This document shows positions 4,265 through 31,116 of a stretch of DNA of 32,000 bases, piece by piece; the stretch's first letter is position 1; the number at the start of each line of letters is the position of its first letter. The notes under the pieces are model-generated. The model had not been told where the DNA came from and searched no databases. It was given only the letters and a program-made list of their open reading frames with translations. Both the position numbers and the translations under genes were made by a program. The stretch covers positions 2,730,001-2,762,000 of the forward strand of contig NC_010546.1 of the NCBI RefSeq assembly GCF_000017845.1, written 5' to 3'. This DNA is from Crocosphaera subtropica ATCC 51142 (GTDB taxonomy: Bacteria > Cyanobacteriota > Cyanobacteriia > Cyanobacteriales > Microcystaceae).

Positions 4265-5437
4265 ATGCTAAATCCTAATTTAGAAGCAATAGAACTCAAT
4301 AAAGAAGAGATTGAAAGATACTCTCGCCACATTATCTTGCCAGAAGTGGGGCTAGACGGTCAAAAACGGTTAAAATCTGCCAGTGTTCTTTGTATCGGAA
4401 CTGGAGGCTTAGGATCTCCCCTTTTACTTTACCTGGCTGCTGCTGGTATTGGACGCATTGGGATTGTTGATTTTGATATTGTCGACAGTTCTAACTTACA
4501 GCGTCAGATCATTCATGGCACTTCTTGGGTGGGTAAACCGAAGATTCAATCAGCAAAGGATCGCATTTTAGAGATTAACCCGGCTTGTCAGGTGGATTTA
4601 TACGAAACGCGTCTGTCTTCGGAAAATGCTCTCAAGCTGATGGAACCTTATGACGTGATCGTAGACGGGACTGATAACTTCCCCACTCGTTACCTCACCA
4701 ATGATGCTTGTGTGTTGTTAAATAAACCCAACGTTTATGGGTCAATTTTCCGCTTTGAAGGCCAAGCAACCGTATTTAACTACGAAGGGGGTCCTAACTA
4801 CCGTGACCTATATCCCGAACCTCCCCCACCTGGAATGGTTCCCTCCTGTGCAGAAGGAGGTGTTTTAGGGGTATTACCTGGCATTATTGGCACTATTCAA
4901 GCTACTGAAACCATTAAAATTATTTTAGGGGCGAAAAATACCCTCAGTGGCCGTTTATTGTTGTACAATGCCTGGGATATGAGCTTTCGGGAACTGAAGC
5001 TACGACCGAACCCAGAACGACCTGTGATTGAACAATTGGTTGATTATGAGCAGTTTTGTGGCATTCCTCAGGCTCAAGCCGCCGAAACGGAAGAAAAAGC
5101 AGCCATTCCTGAAATTAGCGTCACTGATCTCAAAGAGTTAATGGATCACGGGGCTGATGCGTTTGTATTAATTGATGTGCGTAACGTCAATGAATATGAA
5201 ATTGCCCGTATTCCTGGTTCTGTGTTAGTTCCCCTCCCGGATATCGAACAAGGTTCAGGGGTACAAAAAGTCAAAGAATTAGCTAAAGATCATCGTGTTA
5301 TTGCTCATTGTAAAATGGGAGGGCGATCAGCCAAAGCTTTAAAAATTCTGCAAGATGCTGGAATTAATGGAACCAATGTTAAAGGTGGTATCACTGCTTG
5401 GAGTCAAGAAGTTGATCCCGATGTTCCTCAATACTAA
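4265..5437 (+). CDS. moeB: Molybdopterin-synthase adenylyltransferase MoeB (ThiF/MoeB/HesA family) with a C-terminal rhodanese domain
   Basis: YSRHIILPEVGLDGQKRLKSASVLCIGTGGLGSP is the nucleotide-binding block. The C-terminal rhodanese active-site loop is HCKMGGRS. Confidence 0.9.
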   Translation: MLNPNLEAIELNKEEIERYSRHIILPEVGLDGQKRLKSASVLCIGTGGLGSPLLLYLAAAGIGRIGIVDFDIVDSSNLQRQIIHGTSWVGKPKIQSAKDRILEINPACQVDLYETRLSSENALKLMEPYDVIVDGTDNFPTRYLTNDACVLLNKPNVYGSIFRFEGQATVFNYEGGPNYRDLYPEPPPPGMVPSCAEGGVLGVLPGIIGTIQATETIKIILGAKNTLSGRLLLYNAWDMSFRELKLRPNPERPVIEQLVDYEQFCGIPQAQAAETEEKAAIPEISVTDLKELMDHGADAFVLIDVRNVNEYEIARIPGSVLVPLPDIEQGSGVQKVKELAKDHRVIAHCKMGGRSAKALKILQDAGINGTNVKGGITAWSQEVDPDVPQY

Positions 5438-8291: not shown

Positions 8292-8550
8292 CTTTAGTAT
8301 GTCAATGCTTTTGCGTGTAAACTTTAACTTATACATGAAGTTATACATTACGATAACACTACTATTTTGATTATGGCTTTAAATGAGAATAGAGACATTT
8401 GACTCATTTGAATTCATTAAATCGACTCTAGTATTAATTAAAAGTTTCCTAACTATAGATAAATTCTTCCTGATGTTAAGTTTATGTTAACAATTGAAAA
8501 CAAGGCATCTGAAAGACCATTTATGTTCATCATTAGACGATTCCAAAAAA

Positions 8551-11500
8551 ATGAATGCTAATAACAATACCCTCAATAGGCAAGAACCTTGCCAGAAAAT
8601 ATTACACACCCTCGAAACAATTTCCCCAACTAAAGACTTAGGGTTGGACTTAGCTAAAACCTTTGAAATTGTAGAATGTGAATTTGGAGATGAAATTACT
8701 ACATTTCCTAGGAGGGCTGAAAAGAATGGACACAATCAAGACATGGATCAAGATGTTTATGTTGTCTGTCAAGGTCAAGTTAGGTTAGTCAGTTTTCAGA
8801 CCAATAAACAGAGAAATGTCTCAATTCAGTTACTCCAAGAAGGGGACATTTTTGGGGGAGATGGGTTAGGAAATCGAATCAGTTGGGCTTATGGTGCGAT
8901 CGCAGTGGGTTCAGACCCTGTGCAGGTGGCGAAAATTTCATCCCCTCAACTACAACCTTATTTAGAAAAGTTACCAGAACTTGAAACCCATCTGGCTACC
9001 ATTGCCCAACAAAGACAAACCTTAATCTTTTTTAAGCTCTTTACGAACCTGGGAACCCTACCCGGTCGAAGACTCCAACACCTATTACCTTATATCCAAA
9101 ATCAACGAATTCGAGCCGGAGAAAATCTGGCATCCTGGGGGAAAAAACAACCCAGTCGTTTGTGGTTGTGTCAAGGAGTCATTAAAAATGTCGACCTAGA
9201 AAGAGGTCATTCGTTTGGTTATCCTGAAACCATTCCTTCGGACTGGGTGGCTCAAACCGATCTCGAAGTCTATCAAATTCTCCAACAGGACTGGGATGCT
9301 GTTAGGGCGATCGCCCCTAGCTTACCCTCATCACCAGATAGTTCCTCCCATCTCTCCCCAACCGTTTCCCCAAAAAGTCATCCACCCCTTCCCCCGCCTA
9401 GTGCCTCTGTTCACCCTGAGCCACTTCCTCTCCCTGTCCCCCCTAACCCAGAATCATCAACGGTTGAATTTCCCAAACCCTTAAAAAAGCCCAGAGGATT
9501 ATGGCAAAATTATCCCTTTATTGAACAACAGAGTGCGGCCGACTGCGGTGCTACTTGTTTAGCCATGATTAGTCAATATTGGGGAAAAAGGCTCAATCTC
9601 AACTTTTTGCGAGACTTAGCAGGGGTTGGGCGTTCCGGGGCCTCTTTAAAAAACTTGGCCAAGGCCGCTGAAAAATTAGGTTATCAAGCCAGGCCTGTAC
9701 GAGCCAGTTTAAACCGCTTAATGGAAGAAAAAAATCCTTGGATCGCCCACTGGCAGGGGGATCACTATGTGGTGGTCTATCGTGTCAAAGGCGATCGCCT
9801 ACTCATTGCTGATCCGGCCCAGGGTAAACGGTTCATTCCTCGCCAAGAATTTATCACGGGATGGACAGGCTACGGTTTATTACTCGATCCCACCGAACAG
9901 TTAAATGAAGTCCCTACAGAAAAACGTTCTTTGGGGAGATTTTTGAAATTACTGTTACCCTATCGATCCCTAGGCATACAAATTATTTTCGCCTCTTTGC
10001 TTATTCAAATTTTTGGCTTAGTCACCCCTCTATTTACCCAAATTATCTTAGATAAGGTGGTGGTTAACAAAAGTCTGACCACCTTAAATGTGTTTGCCCT
10101 GGGGGTTCTTTTATTCGGGATCTGGAGTGTTTTATTATCGGGGGTTCGACAGTACCTACTGAGTTATTTGTCTAACCGTCTCGATCTGACCATGATTGGC
10201 GGTTTTATTAATCATGCCTTGTTGCTTCCCCTGAAATTTTTTGAATCTCGTCATGTGGGGGACATTATTACACGGGTTAATGAAAATCAGAAAATCCAGC
10301 GATTTTTGCTGAATCAGGTGGTGTTAGCCTGGTTAGATTTTTTAATGGGATTTGTCTATTTAGGGTTGATGCTCTATTACAACTGGCAACTTACTCTATT
10401 AATTGTGGCTTTAATCCCCCCAATTATGTTATTAACCCTGGGAGCAACCCCTTTATTGCGAAAAGTGTCAAGGGATGTCTTTAATCGCTCTGCTGAACAA
10501 AATTCGGCTTTGGTGGAAACCATTACAGGAGTGGCGACGGTCAAAGCTACCGCAACGGAAAAAGAACTACGTTGGCGTTGGGAAGAACGGTTAACCAATT
10601 ATCTGAATGCTCGATTTCGCAGCCAAAAACTGGGGATTAATCTACAAGCCGGCAGTGGTTTGATTAACTCCCTTGGCAGTACTGCACTCCTGTGGTATGG
10701 AGCAACCTTGGTGATCCAAGATCAACTCACCATTGGTCAATTTGTGGCCTTTAATATGATGATTGGTAAAGTGATCAACCCCGTTCTTTCTTTGGCTAAT
10801 CTTTGGGATGAACTGCAAGAGGTGTTAATTTCTGTCGAACGACTCAATGATATTTTTGACAGTCAACCCGAAGAAATACCCGGTCAACCCAGATTGCAGT
10901 TACCCCCCTTGAAAGGCCATATCAAATTTGATCATGTCACCTTTCGGTATAACGCTGACGAGGAACGCAACACCTTAGAGAATATTTCCTTTGAGGTGCA
11001 ACCTGGAGACACCATTGCCATTGTCGGACGCAGTGGTTCAGGGAAAACCACCTTAGTGAAGTTGCTTCAAGGACTGTATCCCCCAGACTCAGGAACCATT
11101 TACATCGATGAACACGATCTCAACCATATCTCTCCCCAATCCTTACGGAGTCAACTGGGGGTGGTTCCTCAAGAATGTTTCTTATTTTCTGGGACAATTT
11201 TCGAGAATATTACCCTATACCGTCCTGAATTTACCCTAGAACAAGTGGTGAAAGCAGCCCAACTCGCAGAAGCCCATGCTTTCATCCAGAGTATGCCGTT
11301 GGGATATAACACCAAAGTGGGAGAACGGGGAATGAATCTATCAGGGGGACAACGACAGCGCATTGCCATCGCCCGTGCGTTATTAGGCAAGCCACCGATT
11401 CTGATTTTAGATGAAGCCACCAGTTCCCTTGATACGGAGTCGGAACGCAGATTTCAAGCAAACCTTAGTCGTCTTTCCCACGACCGCACCACTTTTATTA

Positions 11501-11646
11501 TTGCTCATCGTCTCTCCACGGTTCGCAACGCTGATTGCATCCTTGTCTTAGATAAGGGAATTTTAGTTGAACAGGGAACCCACGAAGTCTTAATAGCAGA
11601 GCCAGGCATTTATGCTCATTTAGCGGAGCAACAACTCAATCTTTAA
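8551..11646 (+). CDS. HetC-like peptidase-containing ABC exporter: tandem cyclic-nucleotide-binding-like domains, Pro-rich linker, C39 peptidase, ABC transmembrane domain and ATPase
   Basis: The cNMP-like block is VYVVCQGQVRLVS...LQEGDIFGG. The C39 catalytic Cys block is QQSAADCGATCLAMISQYWG, and the His block is WQGDHYVVVY. There are six TM segments. Walker A is GRSGSGKTT, the signature is LSGGQRQRIAIARAL and Walker B is ILILDEATSSLD. The ORF also opens at a TTG at 8494; I chose the first ATG at 8551, and the true start is uncertain. Confidence 0.93.
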   Translation: MNANNNTLNRQEPCQKILHTLETISPTKDLGLDLAKTFEIVECEFGDEITTFPRRAEKNGHNQDMDQDVYVVCQGQVRLVSFQTNKQRNVSIQLLQEGDIFGGDGLGNRISWAYGAIAVGSDPVQVAKISSPQLQPYLEKLPELETHLATIAQQRQTLIFFKLFTNLGTLPGRRLQHLLPYIQNQRIRAGENLASWGKKQPSRLWLCQGVIKNVDLERGHSFGYPETIPSDWVAQTDLEVYQILQQDWDAVRAIAPSLPSSPDSSSHLSPTVSPKSHPPLPPPSASVHPEPLPLPVPPNPESSTVEFPKPLKKPRGLWQNYPFIEQQSAADCGATCLAMISQYWGKRLNLNFLRDLAGVGRSGASLKNLAKAAEKLGYQARPVRASLNRLMEEKNPWIAHWQGDHYVVVYRVKGDRLLIADPAQGKRFIPRQEFITGWTGYGLLLDPTEQLNEVPTEKRSLGRFLKLLLPYRSLGIQIIFASLLIQIFGLVTPLFTQIILDKVVVNKSLTTLNVFALGVLLFGIWSVLLSGVRQYLLSYLSNRLDLTMIGGFINHALLLPLKFFESRHVGDIITRVNENQKIQRFLLNQVVLAWLDFLMGFVYLGLMLYYNWQLTLLIVALIPPIMLLTLGATPLLRKVSRDVFNRSAEQNSALVETITGVATVKATATEKELRWRWEERLTNYLNARFRSQKLGINLQAGSGLINSLGSTALLWYGATLVIQDQLTIGQFVAFNMMIGKVINPVLSLANLWDELQEVLISVERLNDIFDSQPEEIPGQPRLQLPPLKGHIKFDHVTFRYNADEERNTLENISFEVQPGDTIAIVGRSGSGKTTLVKLLQGLYPPDSGTIYIDEHDLNHISPQSLRSQLGVVPQECFLFSGTIFENITLYRPEFTLEQVVKAAQLAEAHAFIQSMPLGYNTKVGERGMNLSGGQRQRIAIARALLGKPPILILDEATSSLDTESERRFQANLSRLSHDRTTFIIAHRLSTVRNADCILVLDKGILVEQGTHEVLIAEPGIYAHLAEQQLNL

Positions 11647-11768
11647 TTTTTGTGGCTTTTTTCTGTTTCTACTGTTATTCCTTGTTATTGATCTAACTAA
11701 GTCGGTAACTATAATCATCACAGTTTTCTACAGTTATCAATTAAAACAATTTAGTGGGGAACTTAAAC

Positions 11769-11887
11769 CTAAGTACCTGGACAAAAATAAACGTTACTGT
11801 CAAGTGAGCAGGGAGCCGAGACAGAGGGTGACTGCTTGTTTATATTTCTTAAGACAGTTGATTATATTTATGTCCGACTACTTAATC
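11769..11887 (-). repeat. Repeat B, copy 2 (MITE-like), inverted relative to 8163-8291
   Basis: ctaagtacctggacaaaaataaacgttactgt ... ttatgtccgactacttaatc. Both termini are near-identical to the reverse complement of copy 1. Confidence 0.75.
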
Positions 11888-11994
11888 AAAAAAATTGATA
11901 ACTGTTTACTGTTGTTTGTTCCCTATCTTAATTAATAACTAATGATTAGCAAATTTTCTCTTATTTTCTCTTTATTCCACATCATCAATTGATC

Positions 11995-12831
11995 ATGAAA
12001 ACCGTTCCTATTATTCGCCGAACATTGCTAACTTTAATGACAGTTAGTTCAATGAGTTTGGCACTACCTAGTAAAGCAGCTAACTTTTTTACAGTATCTG
12101 AAATTAGCTTAGAACTCACAAATTTTAGTCATCTTCCTCATGATATTGCTGCTTTTGTAACCCAAGACGTGACAACTATTGCTAATATTGGTTTTGTTGC
12201 TGCACAAGTTGATGTAGATGCAATTTTTCAAGTGGAAAATAATGAAGCGATCGCTCAAGCTTATTCATCAATTGGTTTAATTGGATCAGGTACAGATTAT
12301 CTAGGCTCAGCCAATGTTTCTACTAATTTATTCGGTAGTTTTATGATTCCTGTAGGGGAATCTTTGCGCTTTGATATTAATTCTTACTTATCTCTAGAAA
12401 ATTTTACTGAGGATCTATTTTCAGGACATAGTACATCAGGAACTATTAGTTTTTTATTTCAAGATGTTTTAAATCAAACCGTCTATGAGGTTTTTCGTTT
12501 AACTGGTATTTTAAATACTAATAATAATGAGGAATTAGGTCGAGATATCCTCAAATTTGTTCGTGGTGATGGACTAAAAATTTCCAATTATTATGAACAA
12601 ATTGTATTAGAAGGCAATAACGAATCCTTAGTTCTTGCCTTTAGTGGCGTATTTGAACAAAAGTTTGAACAAGGGGCAATCATCAATTTAGTCGCTGTCA
12701 GTCAAACTTGTAATTATGATTCTAATGAGGTTGGTGGTTGTGTCACAATTCCTGAACCGTCAAATAGAACCAGTTTATTATTAGGTTTACTCTGCTTAAT
12801 TTCTGTCGGGTTACGCTCAAGAATTATGTAA
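11995..12831 (+). CDS. PEP-CTERM sorting-domain secreted protein
   Basis: N-terminal signal peptide MKTVPIIRRTLLTLMTVSSMSLALPSKA. The C-terminus is PEPSNRTSLLLGLLCLISVGLRSRIM, that is PEP, a hydrophobic helix and a basic tail. The ORF track opens at a TTG at 11989; the ATG at 11995 is more likely. Confidence 0.75.
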   Translation: MKTVPIIRRTLLTLMTVSSMSLALPSKAANFFTVSEISLELTNFSHLPHDIAAFVTQDVTTIANIGFVAAQVDVDAIFQVENNEAIAQAYSSIGLIGSGTDYLGSANVSTNLFGSFMIPVGESLRFDINSYLSLENFTEDLFSGHSTSGTISFLFQDVLNQTVYEVFRLTGILNTNNNEELGRDILKFVRGDGLKISNYYEQIVLEGNNESLVLAFSGVFEQKFEQGAIINLVAVSQTCNYDSNEVGGCVTIPEPSNRTSLLLGLLCLISVGLRSRIM

Positions 12832-13527
12832 AAGATAGTTAAGTTCAATGGCTAGCCATTCCTGAAACATTCGATCCATAATTTCTTCATAAAGTATTGG
12901 GGTCAGTTCCGCCTCAATAAATTCTTCAACCATTAAAATATGATAGCCTTGATCTGTTTTTAACGGAGTAATCACTTTTTTGGGCTGTGCTGCAAAAATA
13001 TTAGCAGAAAAATCAGGTTTAAGATTGAAGCGATATAGTTTTCCTTCATGGCCACAATGATAACGACGTTGTTCATCGATATCATAAATATGTGCTGCTT
13101 GATAAAAACTCATTTCTTCTTCTTCTATTTGATAAAAAATTTCCCAAGCCAACTTTTCATACGGGACAATAATTTGATAAAGCAAAACTTGTTCAAAATC
13201 TACTTTATTCTGAGCAAAATATTTTTCTACTTCTTGAGAAAATAATGCTTCGGCTAGTTTTTGGCGGAGTATACTATTATAAATACCTGCTTCCCAATCA
13301 TCAGAATTAATCATTTGCTCGTCTAACCAAGCATAGGTGTCAGCAGCTTTTTCTAGTGATCTCTGAGTGCGTTGACTATCAGCTTCTATTTGAATTTCCT
13401 CTGCTGTCACTGTCAAATTCATTTTTTCAGCAGCTTGATTAATAATTCTTTGATATTGAATTTGGCAATAAATTTCTTTAAATTTCAGTGTTGTTTTGAG
13501 GAAATTGATGATTGTATCGACTTCCAT
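12817..13527 (-). CDS. Parvulin-type peptidyl-prolyl cis-trans isomerase (PpiC/SurA-like), with no signal peptide
   Basis: The C-terminal rotamase block FAAQPKKVITPLKTDQGYHILMVEEF follows a SurA-N-like helical region. A GAGG Shine-Dalgarno sits upstream of the ATG at 13527. The 3' end overlaps the PEP-CTERM gene by 15 nt. Confidence 0.7.
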   Translation of the reverse strand: MEVDTIINFLKTTLKFKEIYCQIQYQRIINQAAEKMNLTVTAEEIQIEADSQRTQRSLEKAADTYAWLDEQMINSDDWEAGIYNSILRQKLAEALFSQEVEKYFAQNKVDFEQVLLYQIIVPYEKLAWEIFYQIEEEEMSFYQAAHIYDIDEQRRYHCGHEGKLYRFNLKPDFSANIFAAQPKKVITPLKTDQGYHILMVEEFIEAELTPILYEEIMDRMFQEWLAIELNYLLHNS

Positions 13528-13711
13528 AAATTATCCTCTTATTCAAATTACTAAAAAATATCAATAACACAGCGAGGAAATTTAAAAAGGGAGGAGGGAA
13601 ATAATGAATGCTACATACCATTGATGATCTTAGCCTCCTGACACTCTCAATATATCATTAGTAGCACACATTAAAAAATCTGATATCATGTTCCCACACT
13701 CCCTAAGAGGG

Positions 13712-13963
13712 TTAGCGAAATAGTCTTGCAGAAACGTCTATAGTCGTCACAGGTCGCCCGCCAATGCCCCAGGAGAAACCACCAATAAAGGCCAAACCAA
13801 GTTTAACAGGGCTGCCCTCTAAGTCTCCGAGGTCGTCGCCAACTTGGGTAAAGGTTTCAACTGCCCAGCGAGACTTAAAGGAATAAAAACCCCCTTCAAC
13901 GGTTTGGGCATTGGGCAAACTCTCGTCATAAAAGTTTAAATCAGTAATGGTTAACTGGCTCAT
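13712..13963 (-). CDS. Double-glycine-leader peptide a (83 aa): leader MSQLTITDLNFYDESLPNAQTVEGG, 58-aa core
   Basis: ATG preceded by AGGAAG. The leader matches the I-x-D-L-x-x-x-x-E...GG pattern shared with four neighbouring genes and sits next to a C39 ABC exporter. Confidence 0.7.
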   Translation of the reverse strand: MSQLTITDLNFYDESLPNAQTVEGGFYSFKSRWAVETFTQVGDDLGDLEGSPVKLGLAFIGGFSWGIGGRPVTTIDVSARLFR

Positions 13964-13993
13964 GATTGTCTTCCTATTTTGCGGTATAATGGC

Positions 13994-14257
13994 TTAGAGT
14001 GAGAAAGTCCAGGTCAAGAAATTAAACCCTGTAAAGGTATTTGTCCCGATTGCTTCGCCAGCACCATTAACCAAGGCATCTATTCTTCCTGGGTTATCAA
14101 AATTACCATTGACTGTGGCTGACGAGTCGGGAAAAATAGGTCTTAAGAGACTAAGGCGATTAATACGACTGGTTATCGCTCCCTTAATTTGCTCAGGATC
14201 TTGTTGAGCAGTCTGGTGATTAATGAGTTTGAGATGGTCTAGATCAGAAATATTCAT
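13994..14257 (-). CDS. Double-glycine-type leader peptide b (87 aa): leader MNISDLDHLKLINHQTAQQDPEQIKGA (a GA variant), 60-aa core
   Basis: I chose an internal ATG of the 157-aa track ORF. From that ATG the product begins MNISDLDHL, nearly identical to the start of peptide c. The upstream 70 codons overlap peptide c out of frame. Confidence 0.6.
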   Translation of the reverse strand: MNISDLDHLKLINHQTAQQDPEQIKGAITSRINRLSLLRPIFPDSSATVNGNFDNPGRIDALVNGAGEAIGTNTFTGFNFLTWTFSL

Positions 14258-14354
14258 GGGTAGTACCCTTTTGTCTGTTATTTTTCTTGCATAAAAGAAA
14301 ATTTTTGGGAGAGAAAAATTCTTACTTTTTCTCTTAATTGGGTCATCATATTGC

Positions 14355-14615
14355 TTAGAATATTCTTCCAATAGCAACTTGAAACAGTGAGCTACTATAG
14401 GCAACAATATGTTGATCAGGTTGACTAATAGTGACAGGTTCTTCAATAATTTCGGAGGCTGAACCAATAGAACCTAAGTTAAAGGTTCTGATATCTCTTC
14501 CTAAAGCGGCTCTACCAGCAAAGAGAGTAAAAGCTTCGCTAAAGGACATAAAACCGCCTTTTACTTCATCAGATTGATGGATAGTTTCTAGATGTTCTAA
14601 ATCAGAAATATTCAT
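14355..14615 (-). CDS. Double-glycine-leader peptide c (86 aa): leader MNISDLEHLETIHQSDEVKGG, 65-aa core
   Basis: ATG with GGAGA upstream. It has the canonical GG leader and its own promoter-like motif at 14665-14694. Confidence 0.75.
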   Translation of the reverse strand: MNISDLEHLETIHQSDEVKGGFMSFSEAFTLFAGRAALGRDIRTFNLGSIGSASEIIEEPVTISQPDQHIVAYSSSLFQVAIGRIF

Positions 14616-14664
14616 TTTTTGGAATCTCCAATGCTAATGCTTTGATTAACCAAATTTTAGGTCA

Positions 14665-14694
14665 ATTTTATCTCCAATACCTGCCAGTTTGGCA
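14665..14694 (-). promoter_or_regulatory. Putative promoter/operator of the peptide c-b-a unit: palindrome TGCCAAACTGGCA, 11 nt, TAAAAT
   Basis: The minus strand reads TGCCAAACTGGCA-ggtattggaga-TAAAAT. The palindrome is at 14682-14694 and the -10-like box at 14665-14670. The same architecture occurs at 15094-15124 and 15688-15718. Confidence 0.55.
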
Positions 14695-14738
14695 ATCATT
14701 ATAAAATCAATAAATTGATATTTTGATCAGCCATAAAA

Positions 14739-14767
14739 ATCAGGAAGCTATTAGTAAGCTCCCTGAT
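14739..14767 (-). terminator. Rho-independent terminator after peptide d
   Basis: Stem atcaggaagc / gctccctgat (10 bp, 1 mismatch), flanked by an A-run and a T-run. It lies between the peptide d stop (14800) and the peptide c promoter motif. Confidence 0.65.
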
Positions 14768-14799
14768 TTTTTTAATTAAACTGATGAAATATCCTCTGG

Positions 14800-15030
14800 T
14801 TAGCTGAGGGAGCTAGAGTAGGCATCAATACGAGCATAGGCACGGCTACCGAGAGGACCAGCAACAGCACCAGTGGTGTCGGTATCAGTTTCAAAATCGA
14901 TTTCAGTGTCAGATTCTACACCAGTGGCAATAGAACCACCGCCAACGCGAGAAAAAGCACGACCGATACCACCACAGATTTCTTCAGCAGTAGAAACAAC
15001 TTCTAAGTATTTTAGATCTTGGATATTCAT
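14800..15030 (-). CDS. Double-glycine-leader peptide d (76 aa): leader MNIQDLKYLEVVSTAEEICGG, acidic 55-aa core
   Basis: The internal ATG at 15030 is preceded by AAGGAG at good spacing. The track ORF starts 11 codons earlier with no Shine-Dalgarno. The leader pattern is conserved. Confidence 0.75.
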   Translation of the reverse strand: MNIQDLKYLEVVSTAEEICGGIGRAFSRVGGGSIATGVESDTEIDFETDTDTTGAVAGPLGSRAYARIDAYSSSLS

Positions 15031-15093
15031 GAGGTTTAGCTCCTTAGTTCTTGTTAAAACCAACCGTATTGGTTGTTATTAATATAGTAAGTA

Positions 15094-15124
15094 TTTTTAT
15101 CAAGTTTGACTTGCCATTTTGGCA
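15094..15124 (-). promoter_or_regulatory. Putative promoter/operator of peptide d: TGCCAAAATGGCA, 12 nt, TAAAAA
   Basis: Palindrome at 15112-15124 and -10-like box at 15094-15099, read on the minus strand. Confidence 0.55.
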
Positions 15125-15202
15125 CAAAGTTTAAACAAATTTCATACTAAAACTTGACATATAAAAGTAAGAATTATTGTCATTTATTTTTTATAAAAAA
15201 TA

Positions 15203-15237
15203 GATCCTCTTATCCAATTAAATTAGGAAAGAGGATC
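15203..15237 (-). terminator. Rho-independent terminator after peptide e
   Basis: A 9-bp perfect stem, gatcctctt (15203-15211) / aagaggatc (15229-15237). On the minus strand it is followed by TATTTTTT. Confidence 0.7.
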
Positions 15238-15315
15238 ACAATTTCATCATCAATAGATAGAATTTATCTACTCAGTAATTTACTCTTATTGGTACAGTTG
15301 AATTTCGAGTTTTAA

Positions 15316-15582
15316 CTAATCTCCAACCACTACGCTGATACTTCTTCGTCCACCATCTGATTTCTTTTCTTCTCCTCCTACTGAAATAATAGAATTAATA
15401 CTAATTCTAATACTAGCAACTCCGTCACGTTCAATGGTTTCTACTACAAACGGATCATTACTTGACCCTGAATTATCAGGATTAGTTCTTGGATTAATTC
15501 GACTTTCTGTTCTGCCAATCCCACCAAAAACAACTGAGGGATCAGTGACAGTTTCACGATAACTCAAATCAGAAATCAACAT
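15316..15582 (-). CDS. Double-glycine-leader peptide e (88 aa): leader MLISDLSYRETVTDPSVVFGG, 67-aa core
   Basis: ATG preceded by AAGGAG. The leader pattern is conserved. The core starts IGRTESRI, comparable to IGRAFSRV in peptide d. Confidence 0.72.
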   Translation of the reverse strand: MLISDLSYRETVTDPSVVFGGIGRTESRINPRTNPDNSGSSNDPFVVETIERDGVASIRISINSIISVGGEEKKSDGGRRSISVVVGD

Positions 15583-15687
15583 GATATTTCTCCTTAATAA
15601 GACAGTTTTTTGCTAGAAATTAACGGATGTACAAGAGATATAGAAAATACAAAGGTTAATAATACCTATCACCTAATAATTTACCAA

Positions 15688-15718
15688 GTTTTAGTGGGAA
15701 AGCATTGCCAATTTGGCA
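15688..15718 (-). promoter_or_regulatory. Putative promoter/operator of peptide e: TGCCAAATTGGCA, 12 nt, TAAAAC
   Basis: Palindrome at 15706-15718 and -10-like box at 15688-15693, read on the minus strand. Confidence 0.55.
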
Positions 15719-15763
15719 GTTTCTCAAAAATTAGATAACACCTTCATATTTTCTAACTTTGTT

Positions 15764-16153
15764 TTAAAATTGCCACAGTTGTAAGCGAAACCCTCCATGA
15801 ATTTTTGCAGTGTTATTTGTCAATTCTTCTAAGTAATTGATATCTTTAATTTTTTCCCTAGATGTTTGAGTTGTTGTCTGTTGACATGAATCTTTTGATA
15901 ATTGCTGTTTTTGGAAATTCCTCTGCTCATTTTTTTCTTTTTTATGAGACTGTTTTAAACAATTATCTTTAATTAAACGATTATAAGTCCGATAGGGAAT
16001 ATAATGCAGTGGATTATAACCTGCCGTTTGTAAAATTAAAACACAAGCCCAGGAATATTTACCTGCTAAGATCGCATCAACAATTTTTTCAAATTGTTCT
16101 TCGGTCATGGTTCGTGATTGTTTGCTGTTTGCGCTATAACCAGAGTTAGACAT
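15764..16153 (-). CDS. HetP-family protein carrying a C-terminal double-glycine leader-like segment plus an 8-residue tail
   Basis: The N-terminal block [47 protein letters not shown] matches my recollection of the conserved HetP domain. The C-terminus is [29 protein letters not shown]. The ATG at 16153 has GAGGAG upstream; the track start at 16159 is a TTG. Confidence 0.7.
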
Positions 16154-16316
16154 AGTCAATAAAACTCCTCAAAATTGCTTAATTTAAAAACACAACAAGG
16201 CTTAGGAACAACAGGAGAACAGAAGATTCCGAGACTAGGTAACCATCCTTCGGGAAGGCAAAAGGTAGGGAACTAGGAGCAGAAGAAGACTATTTAACCT
16301 GAGTTCGGGGTTAGAG

Positions 16317-16356
16317 GTTCGGAGTGCGACTAAGTCGTGCTACGCAACGGAGTTAG
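16317..16356 (-). repeat. Repeat A, copy 2, inverted relative to 7984-8023
   Basis: gttcggagtgcgactaagtcgtgctacgcaacggagttag; 38 of 40 positions match the reverse complement of copy 1. Confidence 0.85.
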
Positions 16357-16455
16357 ATCATATTTAACAAAATAATGGGTGTTTTAGGCAACGATTTTAT
16401 TAGCCGTTGAGGTTATCCCGAATTCAAGTTATTTAGTGTTTAGTTCAGAACATTA

Positions 16456-18189
16456 CTAAAGCTTTATGCCATCCTTTTGTATTTGCTTAATGGGGTCAAG
16501 CAACACATCAATAATGCGACGGCGACGAATGATAATGTCTGCTGTTACGGTTTGTCCCGGTTTAAAGGCAATCCTTTCTTGATTTTTTAGAATATGATCC
16601 CGTTCTAGCTCGATCTCAACTCGATAAATTTCACCTAGTTTTTCGTCGGATTCCGCATCGGCAGAAATGGCGGTTACTTCACCCGTAATGACCCCATAAT
16701 CCTGATAAGGGTAAGCATCTAGCTTAACTTGTGTCGGCATTCCTTTGTTGACAAAACCAGCTTCTTCGTTGGGGAGAACCGCAGACACCACTAACGGCAC
16801 ATTATGGGGGGCAATCTCAGCAACGGTTTGTCCTGCTTCAATGACTTCGCCGGTGTTTTTGAGATCGAGGGATAAAATGGTGCCACTGATGGGAGCTTTA
16901 AGATACTTATATTGCAGCTTGCTTTGGGCAGCAATTAACAAATTTTTGTTCTCTGTTATTTTTCCTTGCAGTTGGGTCATTTCCACTTCAAGTTGCTGAA
17001 TTTTTTGCATGGCTTCTATTTGCTTCCGTTGCGCTTGCCCTTGCTTCTGAGTCAATTCAGCTTGAGCCTGTTGAACGGTTTGTTGGGCTAAGAACAGTTC
17101 TCCTTGATTTTCGGTCATTTGCGATCGCAGATCCCGTATCCCTTGATTCCCTTGAAAGATTTGTTCGTTGGCTTGGGTCACTTCTTGTAGTTGACTACTG
17201 ATAATCTGTTGTTCTGTTTGTCTCAGGGTTTGTTCGGCTTCGTAGAGATATTCTTGAGAAATGGCTCCTTCTTCTTGTAGGGGTTTAAGTCGGTTGATCC
17301 GCTCTTGATGGGCAACTTTCTCGGCCTGCAATTGATTAAGTCGTTGTTGGGCTAGGGTGGCTAGGGGTTGTAACTGTTTTTGTCGTAATTGATAGGCTGT
17401 AGCCTCGTTTTGTTGTTGAGCTAATAATTGACGGACTGTGGCAATCTTTTCTTTAGTATGGGCGATGACCGCTTGTTGCGCTTGTAGTTCGGCCGAGGCA
17501 ATGGCTGCATCTGTTTTGGCTTCTAATTCAATCCGTTCTTGTAGGGTTTGTTTTTGGCTTAACTCGGTTTCATAGGCTCGGAGCATTTCTTGAAGTCGAT
17601 TAACTTCTTTTTGGGCTAGTTCTGTATCGAATTCCACTAATAATTGACCGGCTTGTACCTCTTGTCCCTCTTCGACGGCAATGTCGGTCACTTTCCCCAA
17701 TTCTACTGGTTGAATTTTATAGGTTTCTCCCTCTGGCACCAATTTTCCTTGGGCTTTCCCTACTTCTTCAAGGGTTCCAAACCAGGCCCAGGCCCCGAAT
17801 GCAAGACAAAATGCCATTCCTCCTAAGATGAACTTTTGGGGTAAGGTGGCAGGGGGTTGGTCTAAGAGGGTTTGGACAGAAGACGACCAGAGATTGACTG
17901 GTTCTTCTAACTGGGGTGAACGATAGGCAGGGGTTGGGTTAAAGGTGGTTTGAGGAAGCTCTATTGCGTTGCTACTGACCCCACCATAAATATGGTTAGA
18001 GTTCTCAGGGGTCATCAAATTGGCCTGGTGTTTCTGACTAACTAATGAAGCGTCTTTGTCTTGAGTAAAATCCTGGACAAATTGCTTGTTCGTTCGTTCA
18101 AAGTGGGTTGACATAGTAAATCTCTTATGGTTTAGATTGATACTTTTATTCAAGGAAAGTTCACAACATTTATTAGGCTTAAAGTTCAT
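16456..18189 (-). CDS. HlyD-family membrane-fusion (periplasmic adaptor) protein of a type I / peptide export system
   Basis: A single TM helix (FILGGMAFCLAFGAWAWFG), a lipoyl-like block VEEGQEVQAGQLLVEFD, about 250 aa of Q/E/L-rich coiled coil, and a C-terminal beta-barrel block GMPTQVKLDAYPYQDYGVITGEVTAIS. An alternative ATG lies at 18114. Confidence 0.88.
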   Translation of the reverse strand: MNFKPNKCCELSLNKSINLNHKRFTMSTHFERTNKQFVQDFTQDKDASLVSQKHQANLMTPENSNHIYGGVSSNAIELPQTTFNPTPAYRSPQLEEPVNLWSSSVQTLLDQPPATLPQKFILGGMAFCLAFGAWAWFGTLEEVGKAQGKLVPEGETYKIQPVELGKVTDIAVEEGQEVQAGQLLVEFDTELAQKEVNRLQEMLRAYETELSQKQTLQERIELEAKTDAAIASAELQAQQAVIAHTKEKIATVRQLLAQQQNEATAYQLRQKQLQPLATLAQQRLNQLQAEKVAHQERINRLKPLQEEGAISQEYLYEAEQTLRQTEQQIISSQLQEVTQANEQIFQGNQGIRDLRSQMTENQGELFLAQQTVQQAQAELTQKQGQAQRKQIEAMQKIQQLEVEMTQLQGKITENKNLLIAAQSKLQYKYLKAPISGTILSLDLKNTGEVIEAGQTVAEIAPHNVPLVVSAVLPNEEAGFVNKGMPTQVKLDAYPYQDYGVITGEVTAISADAESDEKLGEIYRVEIELERDHILKNQERIAFKPGQTVTADIIIRRRRIIDVLLDPIKQIQKDGIKL

Positions 18190-18952: not shown

Positions 18953-19993
18953 ATGACTAACAATCAGGTTTTTTCGATTGCTAATAATTCTGATCTCAAA
19001 AATTTTAACTATCAAGAATTAAATCCACAAATGCGCCATGAGGTTCAAGAGTTAACCCTTGATATCAAAAATCGACTCCGTCGCTGCGCTCAAGATATCT
19101 ATATTATTGGTGATAATCTATGTAAAATCAAAGAACAATTACAACATGGACAATTTCGGACGTGGTTAAAAGCCGAATTTGATTGGAGTGTATCTGCTGC
19201 TAATAAATTTATGCAGGTTAGTCAACAATTTCAACTCAATGACTTAGAAACAGTGGAAATTTCTCCCTCGGCTCTCTATATTTTAGCAGCCCCTTCGACA
19301 CCCCAAGAAGTTCGCACTCAGGCTTTAGATACAGCGAAACAAGGTCAAACCATTACCTTTTCTTTTGCCAAACAACTCCTCAAACAAAATAAAGAGAAAC
19401 AATCAGATCCAAATATTAATAACCAACCAAGAAATAATCTTATAACCCAGGAATATCAATATGATCCAAAAATTAACAACCAGTTATTCCCTGATCAATC
19501 TAATGTCTTAGACTTGGTAAACACAAAGACAAGTGAGCTAAATTTATCGGTTCAAATTTATAGTTCTTCTGAATTTAATAATTATTTAGAGGAAGCATGG
19601 CAAAAAATGTTTGGTGCAGAAGAGTATTTATCTTTGCTAGTATGTCAAATTAATTCAGAAGATAGCAAACAGTCAGAAACCTTAATGTTTCAAGTGTTTC
19701 AACAACTCAGTTATGGATTAGCTTTTAGTTTAAAGCGAGCGGGGGATTTTGTGGGACAATATGATGAGAATCAATGTATTGCTGTTTTATCCAATACTGA
19801 TCCCGAAGGCGTTCAATGTGTAGTAGATCGGTTTATGAAGTGGTTTAGTGCTTGGCAAAAAACCCTATATAAGTCTGATCGATTCAAAACCCTAAATATT
19901 CATATCGGAACCGCTAGTATGATTCCTAAGCAGGGATTTACCCCTCACAGTCTCATTGAAACGGCGTTAAAGAATAAGGAATTAATGAAGTAG
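18953..19993 (+). CDS. DUF3102-like N-terminal domain fused to a degenerate GGDEF-like domain
   Basis: The N-terminus, IIGDNLCKIKEQLQHGQFRTWLKAEFDWSVSAANKFMQV, resembles DUF3102. The C-terminus follows the GGDEF fold pattern (LSLLVCQIN..., RAGDFVGQYDENQCIAVLSNTDPEG, LNIHIGTAS), but the GGDEF signature is replaced by YDENQ. Confidence 0.5.
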   Translation: MTNNQVFSIANNSDLKNFNYQELNPQMRHEVQELTLDIKNRLRRCAQDIYIIGDNLCKIKEQLQHGQFRTWLKAEFDWSVSAANKFMQVSQQFQLNDLETVEISPSALYILAAPSTPQEVRTQALDTAKQGQTITFSFAKQLLKQNKEKQSDPNINNQPRNNLITQEYQYDPKINNQLFPDQSNVLDLVNTKTSELNLSVQIYSSSEFNNYLEEAWQKMFGAEEYLSLLVCQINSEDSKQSETLMFQVFQQLSYGLAFSLKRAGDFVGQYDENQCIAVLSNTDPEGVQCVVDRFMKWFSAWQKTLYKSDRFKTLNIHIGTASMIPKQGFTPHSLIETALKNKELMK

Positions 19994-29983: not shown

Positions 29984-30556
29984 TTACACTTCGTAAGAAA
30001 GTTCTCGCAACATTGAAACCGTAATTGGTAATTCTTGTTTGAGTAAAATTTCTAAATATTCGTCTATAGATTTAGGCGGTTTTTTTAATCTTTTTCGACA
30101 AGTTTCTGCTGCTTTTGCAACTTTAAAAGGTTTTAAATCAATTAAATTTGAAATAAACTTATCGGGATGTTCTACAAAAATTTCATAATTATCAAGAACA
30201 TGAGATGGAAAATCTTTAAGATTCATAGTAACAATAACATCAACTTGACCTTTTATAGCTGCTGCTAATACATGACGATCATCAGAATCTGGTAAATTAA
30301 TTGAGGAAATTAATTCCTCATAACCTGTTATTAAACAATCACGAACATGACTATTCATTAAATTCTTAATTTTTATCAACTGTTCAAGGGTTAAATCAGG
30401 TCTATTTTTTAGAATATTACGAATCCATTCATCATGAATTGTATCAGTCCAACGCGCTCTAAAAAGGTCAGTTAATGCTAACTGCATCAATAAATCTCTT
30501 AACGGTGCAGGATACAAAACACAAGCATCATAAAGGGCAGTAAAATTAGAGGACAT
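29984..30556 (-). CDS. PIN-domain ribonuclease-type toxin
   Basis: Acidic PIN blocks LYDACVLY, DSDDRHVLAAAI and VIVTMNLKDF. The start codon directly abuts the stop codon of the upstream HTH gene. Confidence 0.68.
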   Translation of the reverse strand: MSSNFTALYDACVLYPAPLRDLLMQLALTDLFRARWTDTIHDEWIRNILKNRPDLTLEQLIKIKNLMNSHVRDCLITGYEELISSINLPDSDDRHVLAAAIKGQVDVIVTMNLKDFPSHVLDNYEIFVEHPDKFISNLIDLKPFKVAKAAETCRKRLKKPPKSIDEYLEILLKQELPITVSMLRELSYEV

Positions 30557-31027
30557 TTACTCATAACCCATGTTTAATTCTTGTGCTTGTTCTACTAGTT
30601 TATCTAATACTTCACTTCGCTTACGATCAATATTATCTTTGTAGTTCATAATATCTTCAAAACGAATACGACGATGTTTTCCCACTTTAGTAAAAGGAAT
30701 TTCTCCAGACTCCAGTAATTTGATTACATAAGGACGAGACACATTCAAAATATCAGCAGCTTCTTGAGTGGTTAACTCAGCATGAATAGGAATTAGAGTT
30801 ATTGCATTTCCTTGTGCCATTTGAGTTAAGATATCAATCAATAAATGAAAAGCACTAGCAGGTATTTCAACAACTTGTTCAGTGCTATCATTTTTTAACA
30901 GTTTGATCGTTTGAGATTGATGATTGGATTGAAGATGAGACGCTAAAATGCGACTACTTTCCTGAGCAGTTTTTATCTCTGACTCAGACGGAATGAATGG
31001 TTTGTTAAGTGTTTTTGAGACGGTCAT
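30557..31027 (-). CDS. Excisionase/MerR-type helix-turn-helix antitoxin partner of the PIN protein
   Basis: LTTQEAADILNVSRPYVIKLLESGEIPFTKVGKHRRIRFEDIMNY is a typical HTH_17/excisionase-family block. The ATG at 31027 has GAGG upstream; the track ORF extends to 31093. Confidence 0.68.
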   Translation of the reverse strand: MTVSKTLNKPFIPSESEIKTAQESSRILASHLQSNHQSQTIKLLKNDSTEQVVEIPASAFHLLIDILTQMAQGNAITLIPIHAELTTQEAADILNVSRPYVIKLLESGEIPFTKVGKHRRIRFEDIMNYKDNIDRKRSEVLDKLVEQAQELNMGYE

Positions 31028-31116
31028 TGGAATTGCCTCATGCTTAAACCTCAGTGATTTAAGCATAACTGGCAAACGAAATAAACGCAACAAGCGAAAT
31101 AAACGAAATTAGACCC

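Follow-up and report, generated by a model that had tools for sequence, protein, structure and literature searches.

A 32,000-nt stretch of DNA from Crocosphaera subtropica (formerly Cyanothece sp.) ATCC 51142 (here the window; positions are counted from its first nucleotide) carried, within positions 8494 to 18189, the genes for a C39-peptidase ATP-binding cassette (ABC) exporter of the HetC family, an HlyD-type adaptor, a HetP-family protein, and five small peptides with double-glycine (GG) leaders. What does such a locus process and export, and what are relatives of HetC and HetP doing beside a set of GG-leader peptides? A sequence-only reading of the window had proposed one complete module of substrates, peptidase-exporter, and adaptor. 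The results below indicate with good confidence that genes cce_2670 to cce_2678 are the one "group II" cluster of this strain, a locus for the processing and export of double-glycine peptides; the locus, its five small open reading frames (ORFs), and the link between HetP and the leaders were already published in 2011 (PMC3140520).

Identity and gene content of the export cluster

The core genes of the locus were as follows.

8494..11646, plus strand: long-type peptidase-containing ABC exporter (cce_2670 by position), assigned by Pfam, NCBIfam, and C39 alignment
13712..13963, minus strand: pep1 (cce_2673), 83 aa, leader MSQLTITDLNFYDESLPNAQTVEGG, core 58 aa
13994..14257, minus strand: pep2 ("CDS3", unannotated in GenBank), 87 aa, leader ending in GA, core 60 aa
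14355..14615, minus strand: pep3 (cce_2674), 86 aa, leader MNISDLEHLETIHQSDEVKGG, core 65 aa
14800..15030, minus strand: pep4 (cce_2675), 76 aa, leader MNIQDLKYLEVVSTAEEICGG, core 55 aa
15316..15582, minus strand: pep5 (cce_2676), 88 aa, leader MLISDLSYRETVTDPSVVFGG, core 67 aa
15764..16159, minus strand: HetP-family protein (cce_2677), 131 aa, NF037966 at 116.5 bits (cut-off 45)
16456..18189, minus strand: HlyD-family type I secretion membrane-fusion adaptor (cce_2678 by position), assigned by TIGR01843 and HlyD_3

Wang, Fewer & Sivonen (PLoS One 6:e22384, PMC3140520) mined 58 cyanobacterial genomes and sorted C39/HlyD clusters into seven groups, group II being defined by a long-type (CAP_ED) C39 ABC exporter, HlyD, a rotamase ("SurA"), a mean of 3.8 precursors, and frequently a HetP-like protein with the motif KIxDLxYLEx10GG. 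Their Table 1 gave one group II cluster for Cyanothece ATCC 51142, and their Table S3 named its precursors: cce_2673, the unannotated "CDS3" (CP000806:2743994-2744257), cce_2674, cce_2675, cce_2676, and cce_2677 (HetP), the first five being pep1 to pep5. The Table S3 coordinates equalled the window coordinates plus 2,730,000, and the window was therefore CP000806:2730001-2762000; its HetP-like ORF was 100% identical to cce_2677. All group II components (long-type C39 ABC, HlyD, rotamase, multiple GG precursors, and HetP) were present, so that the window matched the group in definition and was itself listed there, and it carried none of the optional extras (M16 peptidase, APH/ChoK-like kinase, and transposase). 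The specific composition and cargo had been put forward as something new; this did not survive the comparison, since the exact locus and ORFs, as well as the HetP motif and association, were in that paper. Table S3 itself gave cce_2677 as 2188113-2188508, which clashed with its neighbors (2743712-2745582) and with the 2745764-2746159 predicted from the window, and this was probably a typographical error in the supplement.

The exporter displayed an N-terminal cNMP/CAP_ED-like region, a Pro-rich linker, a C39 peptidase, a six-helix ABC_membrane region, and a nucleotide-binding domain (NBD), and its true start was likely the ATG at 8551. It matched Peptidase_C39 (PF03412; 2.7e-39, 134.5 bits), ABC_membrane (PF00664; 2.5e-47), ABC_tran (PF00005; 8.3e-38), and, as a marginal pass (27.8 bits vs. 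a cut-off of 27.5), cNMP_binding (PF00027) at residues 83-157. The C39 domain aligned end to end with those of LahT150 (6mpz; E = 2.5e-21) and PCAT1 (4ry2; E = 2.8e-19), with the catalytic Cys351, His424, and Asp440 aligned to both, and the NBD kept Walker A GSGKT (848-852), signature LSGGQ (949), Walker B ILILDE (969), and H-loop H1005 intact; with the C39 triad and the ABC_membrane plus NBD pair both in place, the protein was a member of the peptidase-containing ABC transporters (PCATs, C39 family). By analogy with characterized PCATs, we infer that it cleaves GG leaders during export. The adaptor scored 242.8 bits with TIGR01843 (cut-off 208.65) and 4.7e-19 with HlyD_3, and the domains earlier claimed for the exporter, HlyD, and the HetP-like ORF were all confirmed by profile searches at the coordinates listed here.

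The leader pattern [ILVM]x[DN][ILM]x[YHF][ILVMRY][EDKQ]x5-16G[GAS] was searched in all stop-to-stop segments of >=40 aa in six frames of the 32-kb window, and it matched exactly six times: five N-terminal leaders plus a C-terminal segment of the HetP-like protein. In 200 residue shuffles, the mean was 0.09 and the maximum was 1, and the proposal of six ORFs sharing one leader segment thus held. The five small ORFs had N-terminal leaders of the double-glycine type (defined by 15-30 aa, an end in GG, GA, or GS, a hydrophobic residue at -4, and a conserved amphipathic segment), position -4 being V or I in all six leader-like segments; one leader ended in GA, and one had R in place of L at the seventh motif position. 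The leader-coding DNA appeared as direct repeats, including a 28-nt stretch, 79% identical, common to the pep4 leader and the HetP motif. All five ORFs were intact and had Shine-Dalgarno-like sequences; the 76-aa form of pep4 started at an ATG preceded by AAGGAG, the annotation giving 87 aa from a TTG at 15063. The cores (55-67 aa) contained no Cys and were neutral to acidic (pI 4.2-6.3).

Two further genes lay in the interval covered by the sequence-only reading.

11989..12831, plus strand: ORF280 (cce_2671), secreted PEP-CTERM-like protein, by identity to cce_2671 and homologue alignment
12817..13527, minus strand: PpiC/parvulin-type peptidyl-prolyl isomerase (PPIase; cce_2672, the "SurA" of Wang et al.), PF00639 at 37.2 bits (cut-off 21.7)

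Both were conserved cluster members that had gone unmentioned. The PPIase gave a weak match to the TIGR04500 "peptide maturation system" model (54 bits, below cut-off), and it had no N-terminal hydrophobic signal, being therefore probably cytoplasmic and not a periplasmic SurA. ORF280 consisted of a signal peptide, a domain of ~230 aa without Pfam match, and a C-terminal PEPS followed by a hydrophobic helix and a basic tail; in an alignment of 17 homologues from related clusters, EPS/PEPS plus the transmembrane helix and basic tail were invariant. With TIGR02595 (cut-off 16), the tails of two orthologues passed (18.0 and 16.9 bits), and that of ORF280 in the window was sub-threshold. A search of a 5.8-billion-protein index with ORF280 returned only itself, the homologues having come from BLAST within the fetched loci. 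Domain scans found no LanM, YcaO, radical-SAM, or M16 gene in the window, and a ribosomally synthesized peptide system with a dedicated modification enzyme beside its precursors was accordingly not what the locus displayed: a PPIase was all that was present, and the cores were Cys-free. The earlier statement that the window lacks a modification enzyme had passed over the PpiC-type PPIase; no small membrane immunity gene and no TolC gene were present in the window. The proposed module was supported in part, by its domains, leaders, and co-conservation (see below), with the PPIase and the PEP-CTERM-like protein to be added.

As for the names, the two families of the hetC-hetP pairing were indeed at one locus in the window, and the heterocyst role attached to the pairing did not carry over. 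C. subtropica ATCC 51142 is a unicellular diazotroph without heterocysts, and "HetC" and "HetP" are therefore family names here, not heterocyst functions; the exporter, having no part in heterocyst differentiation, was a family relative rather than a functional HetC.

Conservation across related loci and predicted promoters

The comparison was applied to 80 HetP-family loci of other cyanobacteria, taken as one-genome-per-species contigs from at least 581 matches, with ORFs compared by BLASTP plus clustering. The ABC exporter and HlyD were each found in 70 of these loci (many of the absences being contig ends) and the PPIase, downstream of the peptides, in 43; the expected co-conservation of HetP, C39-ABC, and HlyD was thus strong. 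ORF280 relatives occurred in 16 to 18 loci, always convergent with the PPIase, and the remaining families reached at most 11 loci each, with a GH116 glycosidase as the exception. The usual order was ABC, HlyD, HetP, GG peptides, PPIase, and then convergent ORF280; in the window, and in L001 and L010 as the loci most closely related to it, the ABC gene lay in inverted orientation at the opposite end of the cluster.

In 36/80 loci (e.g., L007, L009, and L016), the HetP-linked ABC gene was immediately preceded by the GH116 gene (beta-glucosidase 2-like, ~800 aa), at a distance of ~8 kb upstream of HetP; this gene was not in the window, where an MlaD/ABC-ATPase pair stood upstream of the exporter instead. 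On the other side of the cluster, a DUF3102 plus GGDEF-like protein (18953-19993, plus strand) was divergent from HlyD across a 760-bp AT-rich spacer, and, being conserved in 1/80 loci, it was probably not a cluster member. Farther away, genes for a PIN-domain protein (190 aa) and an HTH_17 protein (178 aa) (29984-31093, minus strand) adjoined without a gap at 30556/30557, in a toxin-antitoxin-like arrangement unrelated to the cluster.

In heterocystous Fischerella, Calothrix, Rivularia, and Nostoc, the backbone was reduced to a hetC-type ABC, an HlyD fragment (~293 aa) or none, hetP, and PPIase, and no canonical GG genes were found at the hetP loci of the sampled heterocystous genera. The HlyD-like ORF of ~293 aa was placed between hetC and hetP (~9050-9935) in L028, L034, L037, L041, L045-L047, and L050 (Fischerella and relatives) and matched residues 54-571 of the query with gaps; it looked like a decayed adaptor, which suggests that the ancestor of the hetC-hetP locus was a complete group II export cluster.

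Three of the cargo genes shared a palindrome, TGCCAAnnTGGCA, of which the window had three copies, 67-136 nt 5' of the ATGs of pep3, pep4, and pep5; with one mismatch allowed, 0.54 palindromes were expected in the window, and none of 100 shuffles reached the observed count. The associated regulatory features, all on the minus strand, were as follows.

14682..14694, minus strand: palindrome TGCCAAACTGGCA with TAAAAT 22 nt downstream (motif scan), predicted activator-dependent promoter of pep3
14735..14771, minus strand: intrinsic terminator hairpin after pep4, followed by UUUUUAU (-20.4 kcal/mol, z = -5.0)
15112..15124, minus strand: palindrome TGCCAAAATGGCA with TACTAT 22 nt downstream (motif scan), predicted promoter of pep4
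15203..15237, minus strand: terminator-like hairpin after pep5, followed by UAUUUUUU (-16.3 kcal/mol, z = -3.0)
15706..15718, minus strand: palindrome TGCCAAATTGGCA with TAAATT 22 nt downstream (motif scan), predicted promoter of pep5

The form TGCCA-N3-TGGCA was present in 71/80 related loci (e.g., L009 at 7844, 14696, and 15592; L022 at 13692-13920). The 80 loci plus the window held 144 such sites in 1.34 Mb, vs. ~1.3 expected, and within the 80 loci 124 sites lay inside clusters and 17 in flanks. At 107 of the 144 sites, TAnnnT started exactly 21 or 22 nt past the palindrome on the gene strand, the offset being 22 at all three window sites. The palindrome was found at most 260 nt upstream of 41 of 77 candidate GG peptide genes, and upstream of HlyD(-HetP) in 25 cases; in the window, none stood upstream of the HlyD, HetP, or ABC gene. 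With its center near -41 and no -35 box, the palindrome displayed the layout of class II activator-dependent promoters, a cyanobacterial example of which is the NtcA arrangement GTAN8TAC-N22-TAN3T. The predicted cargo promoters would use the palindrome in place of a -35 box, an arrangement that implies a dedicated activator.

A metagenome contig scan with the 16-mer CTGCCAAAATGGCAAC gave 120 matches, most of them chance hits in unrelated organisms; nine carried an MIISDLNYLE...GG ORF 73-90 nt downstream, which was supportive but weak on specificity. A literature text search for the palindrome returned only unrelated zebrafish and human sequences and no bacterial mention, and the group II account of Wang et al. 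mentions neither palindromic promoters nor a PEP-CTERM-like gene, ORF280 as a cluster member included (PMC3140520); as far as the searchable literature shows, the palindromic promoter appears to be new.

Hairpins stood after pep4 and pep5, and no terminator-like fold was found after pep1; the likely transcription units were therefore pep5, pep4, and pep3-pep2-pep1, the last possibly running into the PPIase gene, with pep3 probably its first gene. An Rfam scan of the window gave no match.

Heterocystous loci kept one TGCCA-N3-TGGCA site just downstream of hetP. In loci L027-L080 of this kind, the palindrome, ~130-1200 nt downstream of hetP, was followed by a short conserved translation "..(T)V(A)xGG SF(S/F).." (e.g., L064 at 4326-4584 and L069 at 10875-11194). 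This "..TVAxGG SF.." stretch may be the relic of a GG-peptide gene, in the region that holds patC (asr2819) in Anabaena; a PatC-like or GG ORF with clear conservation could not be defined downstream of hetP in the heterocystous loci.

The HetP-family protein and its leader-like motif

The HetP-family protein cce_2677 was composed of a conserved helical N-domain (~residues 9-66), a variable linker, a leader-like motif (103-123), and the 8-aa tail FRLQLWQF. The HetP domain PF28069 was present on all HetP homologues, cce_2677 included, and in 116/120 of them a leader-like motif stood close to the C-terminus with a short tail behind it, cce_2677 having the form IxDLxYLE-x10-GG plus tail; the idea that HetP shares the recognition motif of the cargo therefore held family-wide. 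Across the 120 homologues, Trp made up 10.4% of the first eight tail residues vs. 1.6% overall, with a peak at +5/+6 after GG. The spacer from YLE to GG was 10 residues in 28/30 HetP proteins and mostly 7-9 in cargo leaders, -4 being V/I in both. An AlphaFold2 (AF2) model from a 90-sequence alignment reached a mean pLDDT of 65.5, with 87-94 at residues 20-50, and displayed a helical N-domain.

In its architecture, with a protein-like "leader", GG, and a short C-terminal peptide, HetP resembled the NHLP/Nif11-type precursors, and Wang et al. tabulated it as a precursor family (PMC3140520); two reports describe C39 domains that process long protein-like NHLP/Nif11 leaders ending in GG (PMC6363468, PMC12537861). 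An M16 peptidase as the HetP cutter at the window locus was also considered, and it was ruled out because the window has no M16 gene.

A close known system was the hetC-hetP(-patC) locus of Anabaena/Nostoc PCC 7120, where genes of these two families are neighbors. For HetC, the role of a cysteine-peptidase ABC exporter has been proven, and its cNMP domain is essential (PMC10986499). The differences were clear: (i) Anabaena has no HlyD gene near hetC (PMC10986499), while the window has one; (ii) hetC-hetP serves heterocyst commitment in Anabaena/Nostoc, while the host of the window is unicellular; and (iii) the window ABC was only 42-57% identical to the hetP-adjacent ABCs of heterocystous strains. 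According to the 2024 HetC study, the substrate of HetC is not known and the surroundings of hetC encode no protein with a leader; the HetP motif was not taken up there (PMC10986499); hetC-adjacent HetP in >30 heterocystous genomes kept IKDLAYLEVVGKQKxEIRGG.

Likely function of the cluster and the alternatives

Two sets of known systems frame the export step. PCAT1/CtA, ComA/ComC, and LahT with NHLP/Nif11 precursors shared with the window the full-length C39 alignment with conserved Cys/His/Asp and the leader with hydrophobic -4 plus GG, but the window exporter had an extra N-terminal ~330 aa with the cNMP-like domain and was paired with an HlyD adaptor in a diderm envelope, and its leader consensus IxDLxYLE was unlike the LSxxELxxIxGG type. 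In Synechococcus elongatus PCC 7942, the GG peptides EbfG1-4, which serve biofilm formation, leave the cell through PteB, a related C39 exporter of cyanobacteria (PMC4997328), and EbfG1-3 form amyloids, as cited in a further report (PMC12267927). That system likewise has tandem small GG-leader genes beside a C39 ABC exporter plus HlyD, with secretion that needs the C39 cysteine and products that serve biofilm and matrix rather than antibiosis; it differs in having no HetP-family gene and no reported PEP-CTERM partner, and its cargo had no sequence similarity to that of the window. The best Anabaena homologue of PteB fell in the group III exemplar cluster of Wang et al. (alr5147/alr5148), and PteB therefore belongs to a different exporter clade.

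On the model of PCAT mechanisms, the cytoplasmic C39 domain would bind the leader helix and cut after GG/GA; as in type I secretion, ATP hydrolysis would drive the 55-67 aa cores through ABC-HlyD plus a TolC-like channel encoded elsewhere. The PPIase has no signal peptide, and its probable targets are the precursors, ahead of their export. The C39 domain would also dock the HetP-like protein and probably cleave it, into a DNA-binding N-terminal product of 123 aa and an aromatic tail of 8 aa, and the three cargo units (pep5; pep4; pep3-pep2-pep1) would be driven by the palindrome promoters. For the cores, a role in the matrix, at the surface, or in signalling is more likely than one as toxins, given the EbfG/PteB analogy, the conserved PEP-CTERM partner, the lack of an immunity gene, and their Cys-free, neutral to acidic composition; the sequence-only reading had leaned the same way, which stays plausible on these grounds and is something that we, too, can only infer. 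Since the cores had no detectable homologues in the 80 related loci and evolve too fast, function could not be transferred from relatives: cargo peptides of related loci were recognizable by their leaders, with cores without detectable similarity.

Several results weigh against this picture of processing and export: (i) no TolC/OEP domain was found in window ORFs of >=100 aa, the outer-membrane partner thus not being in the window; (ii) none of the five cargo peptides had a BLAST hit at E <1e-5 in the 80 related loci; (iii) the HetP motif did not co-vary with local cargo leaders in 30 loci (3.93/8 identities local vs. 3.98 non-local); (iv) a C-terminal HetP-GFP was functional in Anabaena, with localization unchanged in a hetC peptidase mutant (PMC4133259), which does not fit well with obligatory C39 cleavage of HetP; (v) Wang et al. 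raised the possibility that HetP is cut by an M16 peptidase instead of C39 (PMC3140520), although no M16 gene is in the window; and (vi) the literature, searched by locus tag, had nothing on transcription, translation, cleavage, or secretion in ATCC 51142.

Three other explanations were weighed against the processing and export of surface, matrix, or signalling peptides. That the locus is a classical unmodified (class II/microcin-like) bacteriocin cluster, with antimicrobial cores and immunity encoded elsewhere or not needed, seems rather improbable: GG leaders with C39-ABC and HlyD are the canonical export architecture of microcins and bacteriocins, several divergent cargo genes are typical of such loci, and this one was classed as a bacteriocin cluster (PMC3140520), but the window has no small membrane immunity gene, a surface protein of the PEP-CTERM type and a HetP-family protein that binds DNA are conserved in the cluster, and the EbfG peptides, the only tested cyanobacterial GG peptides of such kind, serve biofilm formation and not killing. 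The charge of the cores points the same way, as class II bacteriocins are usually cationic. That the export system has ceased to work, with its small ORFs left over in decayed or silent form, is very unlikely. The silence of the locus-tag literature on expression, the cores without homologues in related loci, and the GA and R deviations in the leaders could be read in that sense; against this stand the five intact ORFs with conserved leaders, the three with conserved promoter architecture at exact 22-nt spacing, the two with strong terminators, and the intact catalytic triad and Walker, signature, and H-loop motifs of the exporter.

The third explanation concerns HetP, and it must be called speculative, being somewhat less improbable than bacteriocin production: the HetP-like protein would be not a cargo precursor but the cluster regulator recognizing TGCCA-N3-TGGCA, and its pseudo-leader would let C39 sequester or clip it, coupling cargo transcription to the state of the exporter. 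In the wider form of the proposal, held equally tentatively, HetP-family proteins would be dedicated cluster activators that bind TGCCA-N3-TGGCA near -41 and are wired to the exporter by a C-terminal pseudo-leader on which C39 docks or which it clips; heterocyst development would then have co-opted, in its HetC-to-HetP commitment step, what was left of this ancestral exporter-regulator circuit, with HetP the HetC substrate. HetP was the sole conserved cluster protein outside transport and PPIase, with no canonical transcription-factor family co-conserved in the 80 loci; the palindrome was confined to HetP clusters in the sampled DNA, the sites upstream of HlyD-HetP included; the HetP motif, by its fixed x10 spacer, was more rigid than the cargo leaders; and hetP over-expression bypasses the loss of hetC, as in a hetC peptidase mutant of Anabaena (PMC4133259). 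A further report describes HetP as binding DNA and making promoters more accessible to sigma-HetZ (PMC13342950), but the binding described is non-specific. A Foldseek search of the AF2 model against PDB gave no significant fold match, for DNA binding or otherwise (best E = 0.95); the window has no palindrome at its HlyD, HetP, or ABC gene; the gene for the factor that binds the palindrome could lie at any place in the genome; and the conserved Trp signature after GG suggests that the released peptide itself matters.

As a group II processing and export cluster with no M16 peptidase, kinase, or transposase, the window locus is a clean minimal example of a widespread and functionally unexplored cyanobacterial system. 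Its residual value lies in the lead on HetP as a HetC substrate, the conserved palindromic promoter, and the PEP-CTERM partner, the latter two not having been found in the searchable literature. The palindrome and the PEP-CTERM partner offer handles on regulation and function: an operator, transcription starts predicted near 14647, 15077, and 15671 (minus strand), and a surface partner. The HetP motif bears on the question of the HetC substrate, as HetP proteins encoded beside hetC-type genes in dozens of genomes carry the leader motif of genuine cargo. If HetP were indeed the activator, cargo transcription would be coupled to export capacity, and a short Trp-containing peptide would be released.

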